IMG/VR virus record: IMGVR_UViG_3300025137_000014 | Location: 32,001 to 96,000 of that record | Direction: 5' to 3' (one strand) | Length of the DNA stretch: 64,000 nt | Source of the DNA: a virus | Shown here: positions 35,554 to 35,793 of the stretch, piece after piece | How positions within the stretch are numbered: position 1 is the first letter of the stretch | How the letters are laid out: the number at the start of each line of letters is the position of its first letter | The notes under the pieces: generated by a model | The model's input: the letters and a program-made list of their open reading frames with translations, nothing else | What the model was told of the DNA's origin: nothing | Databases searched by the model: none | Position numbers and translations under genes: made by a program

Positions 35554-35787
35554 TTATAATATCGGTGTGCCTGCTTTTTTACTCATTTCAAAATTCTGGT
35601 CGATAATATCATTCAGATGTTTGATATGGTTTACTGGCATTTCATGAAGTTCGGAGATAGAAACCCCACCTCTCATGTACCAAGATAATTGTAACAGATT
35701 TCTATGTACTTTGTCAAGTTCTTTTTCAAAGTTTTTTTGTTTTTTTGCAATTTCTTCACCGCTGGCGGTTGCTAGCCAGCTTAAGAA
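35554..35787 (-). CDS. gp51-like baseplate hub/tail chaperone extension, reached by -1 frameshift
   Basis: 77-codon open frame FLSWLATASGEE...LSWYMRGGVSISELHEMP...KAGTPIL; first in-frame ATG is codon 38 and lacks an SD; not in ORF track. Confidence 0.7.
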   Translation of the reverse strand, partial: FLSWLATASGEEIAKKQKNFEKELDKVHRNLLQLSWYMRGGVSISELHEMPVNHIKHLNDIIDQNFEMSKKAGTPIL

Positions 35788-35793
35788 AAATTT
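35761..35793 (-). promoter_or_regulatory. Programmed -1 ribosomal frameshift cassette
   Basis: In-frame slippery heptamer A AAT TTT (35793-35787), 6-nt spacer, stem GCTGGC/GCCAGC (35780-35761). Confidence 0.75.

Follow-up and report, generated by a model that had tools for sequence, protein, structure and literature searches.

The gp26-like gene of the uncultured marine phage analysed here very probably encodes two proteins, a short form of 277 aa and a long form of 353 aa, through a programmed -1 ribosomal frameshift. Most ribosomes would terminate at the zero-frame TAA and release the short form, while a minority would pause over a hairpin which starts 6 nt downstream of a slippery heptamer. 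In these ribosomes, the tRNA-Asn on AAT in the P site and the tRNA-Phe on TTT in the A site would slip back by one base to AAA and TTT, and 77 more codons would then be read, giving a form with a helical C-terminal domain. The short and long forms are expected to act together in assembling the baseplate hub or the tail tube. Such a pair would parallel G/GT of lambda and would correspond to gp26 (short) and gp51 (long) of T4.

The window, i.e. the whole stretch of 64,000 nt that was analysed, represents bases 32001-96000 of a 187-kb IMG/VR virus record. As this record is estimated to be 51% complete, the phage is probably a giant phage of >300 kb. Near-identical DNA is present in marine metagenomes from several studies. 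Blastn of the locus against isolated phages gave no match, and relatives were reached only by protein-level searches. On the basis of similarity to the gp26-like protein, the closest isolated phages are Sinorhizobium phage Phosso (35%) and Agrobacterium phage Atu_ph07 (31%), along with Pseudomonas phage PA5oct and the Rak2/121Q group.

The 277-aa product of the zero-frame gene matches PF12322 (T4_baseplate) with 64.3 bits over residues 54-270, the gathering cut-off being 24.5, and its PHROG match is phrog_150 (baseplate hub). A six-frame search of the phage's own 187-kb record with PF12322 gave a single match of 63.4 bits. The protein possesses a four-cysteine motif, CxxC...CPxC, composed of two zinc-ribbon-like CxxC pairs (TCKKC and VCPEC). 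The counterparts of these pairs in T4 gp26 are KCTCG and KCPEC, and the four cysteines are invariant across 20 long forms that are encoded in frame in relatives. Leiman et al. (2010, PMC3004832) class gp26 and gp51 of T4 among the chaperones of baseplate-hub assembly, and from T4 genetics we infer a similar hub-assembly role for the gp26-like gene. The PA5oct homologue of the protein carries no mass-spectrometry note, while its neighbour carries one. The features of the locus are listed in Table 1.

Table 1. Positions of the features of the gp26-like locus in the window.
Feature	Position	Strand	Basis or remark
Zero-frame gene, short form of 277 aa, gp26-like baseplate-hub assembly chaperone (putative; 'TAC-N')	35781..36614	-	PF12322, phrog_150
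Slippery heptamer A_AAT_TTT (X_XXY_YYZ), in phase with the zero frame	35787..35793	-	Sequence and conservation
6-nt spacer TCT TAA (zero-frame stop with the sense codon before it)	35781..35786	-	
6-bp hairpin GCTGGC-TAGCAACC-GCCAGC, likely frameshift stimulator	35761..35780	-	Conservation, covariation, rare codons, MFE
-1-frame extension, helical C-terminal domain, motif SWYMRGGVS, ends with TAA	35554..35790	-	Protein conservation, AF2 model
Predicted coding region of the long form, 353 aa (zero frame for residues 1-275, -1 frame for the other 78)	35554..36614	-	
742-aa gene, candidate tape measure protein	36723..38951	+	Divergent from the gp26-like gene
PDDEXK / RusA-like Holliday-junction resolvase gene	34332-34862	-	PF24608, phrog_244; downstream

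The zero-frame gene ends with ...GTT AAC CCT GCA AAT TTT TCT TAA. The original prediction, made from this DNA alone, had drawn attention to this gene end with its in-phase heptamer, 6-nt spacer and GCTGGC/GCCAGC hairpin, and to a -1 frame which stays open for 77 codons without an SD-led start and leads to products of 277 and 353 aa; each of these elements was recovered from the sequence of the minus strand. The two arms of the hairpin are situated at 35780-35775 and 35766-35761 and the loop at 35774-35767. The -1 frame is open from stop to stop at 35554-35799, and the extension comprises 77 codons after the slip, or 78 when the re-read phenylalanine codon is counted, with the predicted junction peptide ...NPANFFLSWLATASGEE. 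No ATG, GTG or TTG occurs in it until the methionine of WYMRGG at 35676, which ORF finders take as the beginning of an ORF of 40 aa. In total, 91 in-phase heptamers occur in the window's 42 gene-like ORFs, and the -1 ORFs that follow them have a median length of 4 codons. The one behind A_AAT_TTT is the longest of all (77 codons; next 33), and no other site has a -1 ORF which continues for at least 50 codons past the zero-frame stop. The heptamer differs from that of lambda, G_GGA_AAG, and to our knowledge it is not among the classically efficient heptamers of E. coli, which speaks against a frameshift.

The slip site was followed through relatives by a first scan with the extension profile and a second with the long form, 80 loci being kept from each. 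A first set of junctions contained 70 distinct ones, and the total over IMG/VR contigs and six isolated giant phages (Atu_ph07, Phosso, PA5oct, 121Q, A4 and XaC1) was 122 distinct junctions. An in-phase slippery heptamer was found at all the 122 junctions, from IMG/VR contigs and the six isolated phages alike, a count made over related sequences which are not phylogenetically independent. In all 80 loci of the first scan and in the six isolates, the extension lies in the -1 frame behind a PF12322-type ORF. The second scan distinguished 73 loci of the frameshift type, all of which read xxT TTT TTC G, and 7 loci with the long form in frame. The TTTTT run was invariant in 70/70 distinct junctions of the first set, synonymous positions included. 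Among these 70, 36 possess A_AAT_TTT only, 18 possess A_AAT_TTT and T_TTT_TTC, 12 possess T_TTT_TTC only, three possess A_AAT_TTT and T_TTT_TTA, and a single junction shows T_TTT_TTC one codon off. Nine IMG/VR contigs with 85-89% protein identity have the same frame arrangement, and the heptamer, the spacer length and the hairpin are invariant in them, while upstream third positions, the stop (TAA/TAG) and the serine codon (TCT/TCC) vary. The slip site is also covered without any indel in DNA contigs from two independent marine studies, while contigs from RNA libraries span other parts of the gene.

The junctions with a run of five T's (32 of the 122) represent the clade of the window. In these, the run always has AAA in front of it, and a canonical heptamer is thereby regained one codon further upstream. 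Ahead of AAT the clade invariably has an A, although the encoded residue is valine, alanine or isoleucine. Of the junctions with six T's, 43 have AAA and 47 lack it. As the state of five T's plus AAA forms one clade in the tree, the 32/32 count amounts to roughly one evolutionary event, maintained over much divergence. The combination of AAA with the shorter run fits the re-pairing of two tRNAs and is irrelevant to a polymerase, which favours slippage by the ribosome; that the slip is ribosomal we infer from this sequence pattern.

The hairpin behind the heptamer is conserved in the same part of the family. Across 46 sequences of the clade, five of the six positions are paired in 44-46 sequences and the sixth in 39, and the 5' arm is fixed at +10. 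In three sequences both sides of one pair have changed together, from G-C to A-U, and sequences that have lost GCCAGC regain a hairpin through a 3' arm displaced by ~4 nt (by 7 nt in L050). The 3' arm GCC AGC consists of rare codons, GCC making up 8% of the alanine and AGC 6% of the serine codons of the phage. The minimum free energy of the 45 nt after the heptamer has z = -3.0 relative to windows of the same gene in the five-T junctions, all of which lie in the lowest decile, and z = -1.3 in the six-T junctions, half of which do so. The hairpin overlaps the conserved residues W, A and S, and part of its conservation is therefore at the protein level. Judging from these features, the hairpin is likely to stimulate slippage. 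Other clades have different hairpins at similar spacing. Strong hairpins of 8 bp and of 10 bp with a bulge are found ~20 nt after the heptamer in Atu_ph07 (L001 3035-3055) and Phosso (L002 2983-3013), respectively, at the same place despite the differing encoded residues, and ATGAGGCTCTT across the stop is common to these two phages. An Rfam search of 34700-35900 gave no credible family. A pseudoknot between GCAA of the loop and a downstream TTGC had also been proposed, and this part of the original prediction was given up: the complementarity between loop and downstream sequence is 4.7 nt against 4.0 nt for shuffled loops, and the position of the partner is not conserved.

As the conserved element is a homopolymer run of five or six T's, the slip might be placed at transcription, with RNA polymerase adding one U in the run so that some mRNAs would encode the long form in frame. 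In known bacterial and phage cases polymerase slippage occurs on runs of about 7-9 or more, for which five to six T's are short. Further, the upstream AAA by which the five-T clade compensates is relevant only to two-tRNA re-pairing, and a hairpin kept in rare codons 6 nt downstream is a classic ribosomal stimulator. Contigs in which the run had changed in length did not turn up, though contigs drop rare variants. Slippage of the polymerase is thus considered improbable in comparison with slippage of the ribosome.

The extension is conserved as a protein in at least 590 IMG/VR loci, as found by a search with the extension profile. Column variability peaks at the third positions of the zero frame upstream of the site and at the third positions of the -1 frame downstream, and the switch occurs exactly at the site. 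Upstream, the -1 frame opens 0-28 codons before the site, and at most 16 codons before it in all but one junction. Twenty-three of the 70 junctions contain no ATG, GTG or TTG before codon 37. The leucine codon which gene callers use as a start varies among TTG, TTA, CTA, CTC and CTG, and no start codon is conserved. The switch in variability, the late opening of the -1 frame and the missing conserved start together demonstrate, at the level of sequence comparison, that everything behind the slip site is translated in the -1 frame.

The same data bear on the possibility that the extension ORF is translated alone, by termination-reinitiation or from a non-canonical start, to form a separate protein of ~70 aa. 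ATGA overlaps in Atu_ph07 and Phosso and TAATG in 121Q would permit coupled re-initiation in these phages, and small ORFs of 40-98 aa are annotated at the extension by gene callers and in RefSeq. An exhaustive HMMER profile search of protein representatives with the extension likewise gave 363 matches, mostly fragments of 44-98 aa from arbitrary starts. Against a separate protein, the window itself is among the junctions that lack any of the three start codons before codon 37, protein-level conservation begins at the heptamer, upstream of any candidate start, and the sporadic TTG codons of the extension were found to have no Shine-Dalgarno sequence before them. The PA5oct extension has no methionine at all and is unannotated in RefSeq. 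Moreover, natural in-frame fusions place the domain at the C-terminus of the PF12322 domain. An independent start, which would have spoken against the original prediction, was thus not found in any conserved form, and separate translation is very unlikely compared with the frameshift.

The extension was predicted by AF2 to be composed of four helices (pLDDT 88.9). By itself it has no Pfam or PHROG family, and a fold search in BFVD gave no significant match. The predicted long form is colinear with the natural in-frame long forms, which have 319-351 aa. These were identified by the exhaustive HMMER search as ~20 representative clusters in which the extension domain is fused in frame to the PF12322 domain. 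An earlier word-index search for long fused relatives had returned none; in view of the HMMER result, this was a sensitivity artefact. The in-frame junction reads LDxSxxFRxKLI, with a single phenylalanine and the T run gone, and the in-frame forms are therefore not sequencing artefacts. An AF2 model of one natural in-frame homologue is a single compact protein (pLDDT 91, pTM 0.85). Its viral structural neighbours are assembly proteins of T4-like baseplate hubs, including homologues of gp26 and gp51, while Foldseek gave no PDB match and VIA-align gave only generic helical-hairpin matches (Z <=8.2) among solved structures.

In each of the seven in-frame loci (L104-L110), the immediate neighbour of the long ORF is a second PF12322-like ORF which lacks the extension. 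Loci of the frameshift type have one PF12322 copy, as do the complete genomes of Atu_ph07, Phosso, PA5oct and 121Q, while T4 has two. In a phylogeny from FastTree, a quick tree whose root is uncertain, both copies of L109 are positioned inside a clade of frameshifting genes. The T run of the long L109 copy is two bases shorter than that of its neighbours, which brings the extension into frame. The short paralogues of L104-L108 end in a conserved tail, AGAPxxWxAExxFMGSxF, which was not seen elsewhere. As each in-frame locus is accompanied by an adjacent short paralogue, the short and the long form both seem to be needed. The strongest argument at hand for both forms being functional is that the pair comes either from two genes or from a single gene with recoding.

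An assembly or sequencing error, or a decaying gene whose ORF is a dead remnant, is suggested by the error-prone nature of homopolymer runs and by the very existence of in-frame relatives, but can practically be dismissed: at least 140 independent contigs and the genomes of six isolated phages show the same frame arrangement, as do DNA contigs from two further studies, the T run is gone from the in-frame relatives, which always carry a second short copy, and the extension is under purifying selection in the -1 frame. The in-frame relatives which the original prediction had named as a sign of sequencing error therefore do not point to one, the nine close contigs also keeping the arrangement. 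Its core proposal, a programmed -1 frameshift of a gp26-type chaperone, finds comparative support in the conserved heptamer, the frame switch, the missing conserved start, the paired in-frame forms and the hairpin, for which the suggested comparison across relatives showed conservation in the 46-sequence clade.

It is conceivable, though doubtful at present, that one gene with a frameshift is the widespread and probably ancestral mode of gp26/gp51 expression in T4-related giant phages, replaced at least three times by two genes, and that the five-T clade reveals a ribosomal slip. The replacements would be, tentatively, T4 itself, the lineage of L104-L108, and L109/L110, where the loss of two bases from the T run would have fixed the long form. 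Equally speculative is the course of events in the clade of the window, where the shortening of the run to five T's may have gone with fixation of the upstream AAA and the rare-codon hairpin, which would imply a ribosomal slip.

The gp26-like gene is separated from the 742-aa gene by a divergent intergenic region of 108 nt (36615-36722), which presumably holds the promoters of both. The original prediction had placed the gene next to a divergently transcribed tape-measure gene; the divergent orientation was found, while the tape-measure identity stands as a candidate one. The 742-aa gene has no Pfam or PHROG match, and its atlas features and structure give a weak indication of tape-measure families. 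A search of the 187-kb record for PF25671, the tape-measure family of T4, gave no match. The syntenic counterpart of the gene in PA5oct is a virion protein by mass spectrometry. The order in which a large virion protein, the gp26-like gene, a gap and either a resolvase or an endonuclease VII follow one another is kept in PA5oct, Phosso, 121Q, A4 and XaC1. In the window, the extension ORF and the resolvase gene are separated by a region of ~700 nt (around 35050-35520, minus strand) which contains no credible ORF; it has GC-rich stretches and no Rfam match. An unannotated gap of ~800-1500 nt is situated at the same syntenic place in Rak2-type phages, XaC1, A4 and PA5oct. A mini-ORF of 19 codons (MTNTSAYIVELLIGLPIRD) lies behind AAAGGGAAAAG at 35464-35523 on the minus strand, and the stretch AAAGGGAAAAGAxAATGACTAATAxCTCAG at this mini-ORF is conserved in close relatives. 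This stretch may instead be the 5' part of a structured RNA.

The principle of a frameshift in T4-like phages seems to have been published already in 2022. Short (TAC-N) and long (TAC-NC) forms, with two genes in place of the frameshift in some T4-like phages, are attributed to Vladimirov, Gautam and Davidson (Virology 2022) in the PRFect paper (PMC10885494), and the paper on phage Adele (PMC12846349) credits the same work with slippery poly-T sequences in the TAC-N genes of such phages. In our literature search, in which Vladimirov et al. 2022 is represented by these citing papers, no paper describing the slip in giant phages was found. The useful twist of the present locus appears to be the variant of five T's and AAA with a rare-codon hairpin, which bears on the mechanism. 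For annotation, the trans-frame C-terminal domain is misannotated in at least 590 IMG/VR loci and in the isolates of Rak2, PA5oct and Atu_ph07 type that were examined, where it appears as a small "hypothetical protein" or not at all, in line with the original prediction that standard annotation misses the extension. For evolution, related phages arrive at the same chaperone pair through recoding in some cases and gene duplication in others, which makes them a clean natural example of interconversion. The cultured phages PA5oct, 121Q and Atu_ph07 are tractable systems in which to look for the partner of the helical domain of the long form in hub or tube assembly. If the ancestral frameshift outlined above is true, and if it is not covered by the 2022 work, it would be the first argument that the exception of T4 to the universal tail-chaperone frameshift is derived.

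The present locus can be compared with known systems. Phage P1 PmgB is a proposed tape-measure chaperone which is essential for tails, is absent from virions and adjoins the tape-measure gene (PMC9024508). The likeness to it is weak and consists of a marginal match of the window protein to the PmgB-like PHROG 1854 (E = 0.004). The gpG/gpGT proteins of lambda exemplify the -1 frameshift that is conserved among genes for tail assembly chaperones (Xu, Hendrix and Duda, Mol Cell 2004, as cited in PMC9024508). Like the slip predicted here, that of lambda goes back by one base a few codons ahead of the stop of a tail-assembly chaperone gene and leads to a minor, C-terminally extended form, with both forms needed. 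The two systems seem to differ in that the window protein has no match to a chaperone family in Pfam or PHROGs and no similarity of sequence or fold to gpG-type chaperones was found. The placement also differs, as the window gene is not situated between tube and tape-measure genes, on the same strand and immediately upstream of the latter as in lambda, but is divergent from the candidate tape measure on the opposite strand.

The closest comparison is with T4, whose gp26 (208 aa) and gp51 (249 aa) both match PF12322 and each other and are paralogues, gp51 having ~50 extra C-terminal residues. A virtual long-form profile aligned with 92 gp51 homologues was colinear through the junction (hhalign E = 2.3e-5). 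For the extension alone, a first hhalign comparison of a shallow alignment with T4 gp51 was negative, while 144 extensions compared with the C-termini of the 92 gp51 homologues matched the last 35 residues of gp51 with P = 7e-4, the reversed and N-terminal controls giving 0.12 or higher. The residues aligned are LLxxP[DE]EI, directly behind the junction, and M-P-x-ER...L-I-E-K, close to the end. Homology of the extension with the C-terminal tail of gp51 is thus probable, though short of proof. In the precomputed labels, a second Pfam family, PF28602, is assigned to gp51 homologues (T4 locus L016 8480-9229 and relatives). The original prediction had described the locus as a fusion of a gp26-like and a gp51-like chaperone. 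The gp51 likeness was retained for the long form as a whole, the ORF alone matching, weakly, only the ~50-aa tail; the fusion was abandoned, as T4 gp51 is itself a PF12322 paralogue of gp26. Since the downstream ORF corresponds only to the tail of gp51 and gp51 is a paralogue of gp26, the comparison supports a gp26-like short form and a gp51-like long form in place of a fusion of two chaperones.

T4 and the window phage thus have the same family of N-domain, a short and a long form, and an additional C-terminal tail on the long form. T4 gp26 ends with ...EFFELL* at the position of the slip site and is directly followed by gene 25. Unlike the window phage, T4 uses two divergently transcribed paralogous genes, and the corresponding position (GAG TTC TTT GAG) has neither a slippery run nor a -1 ORF. 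The gp51 tail of ~50 aa is shorter than the 78 residues of the extension and lacks WYMRGG. The suggestion in the original prediction that gp26 and gp51 are the T4 equivalents of G and GT agrees with this comparison and, so far as the citing papers convey the work of Vladimirov et al. 2022, appears to have been published there.
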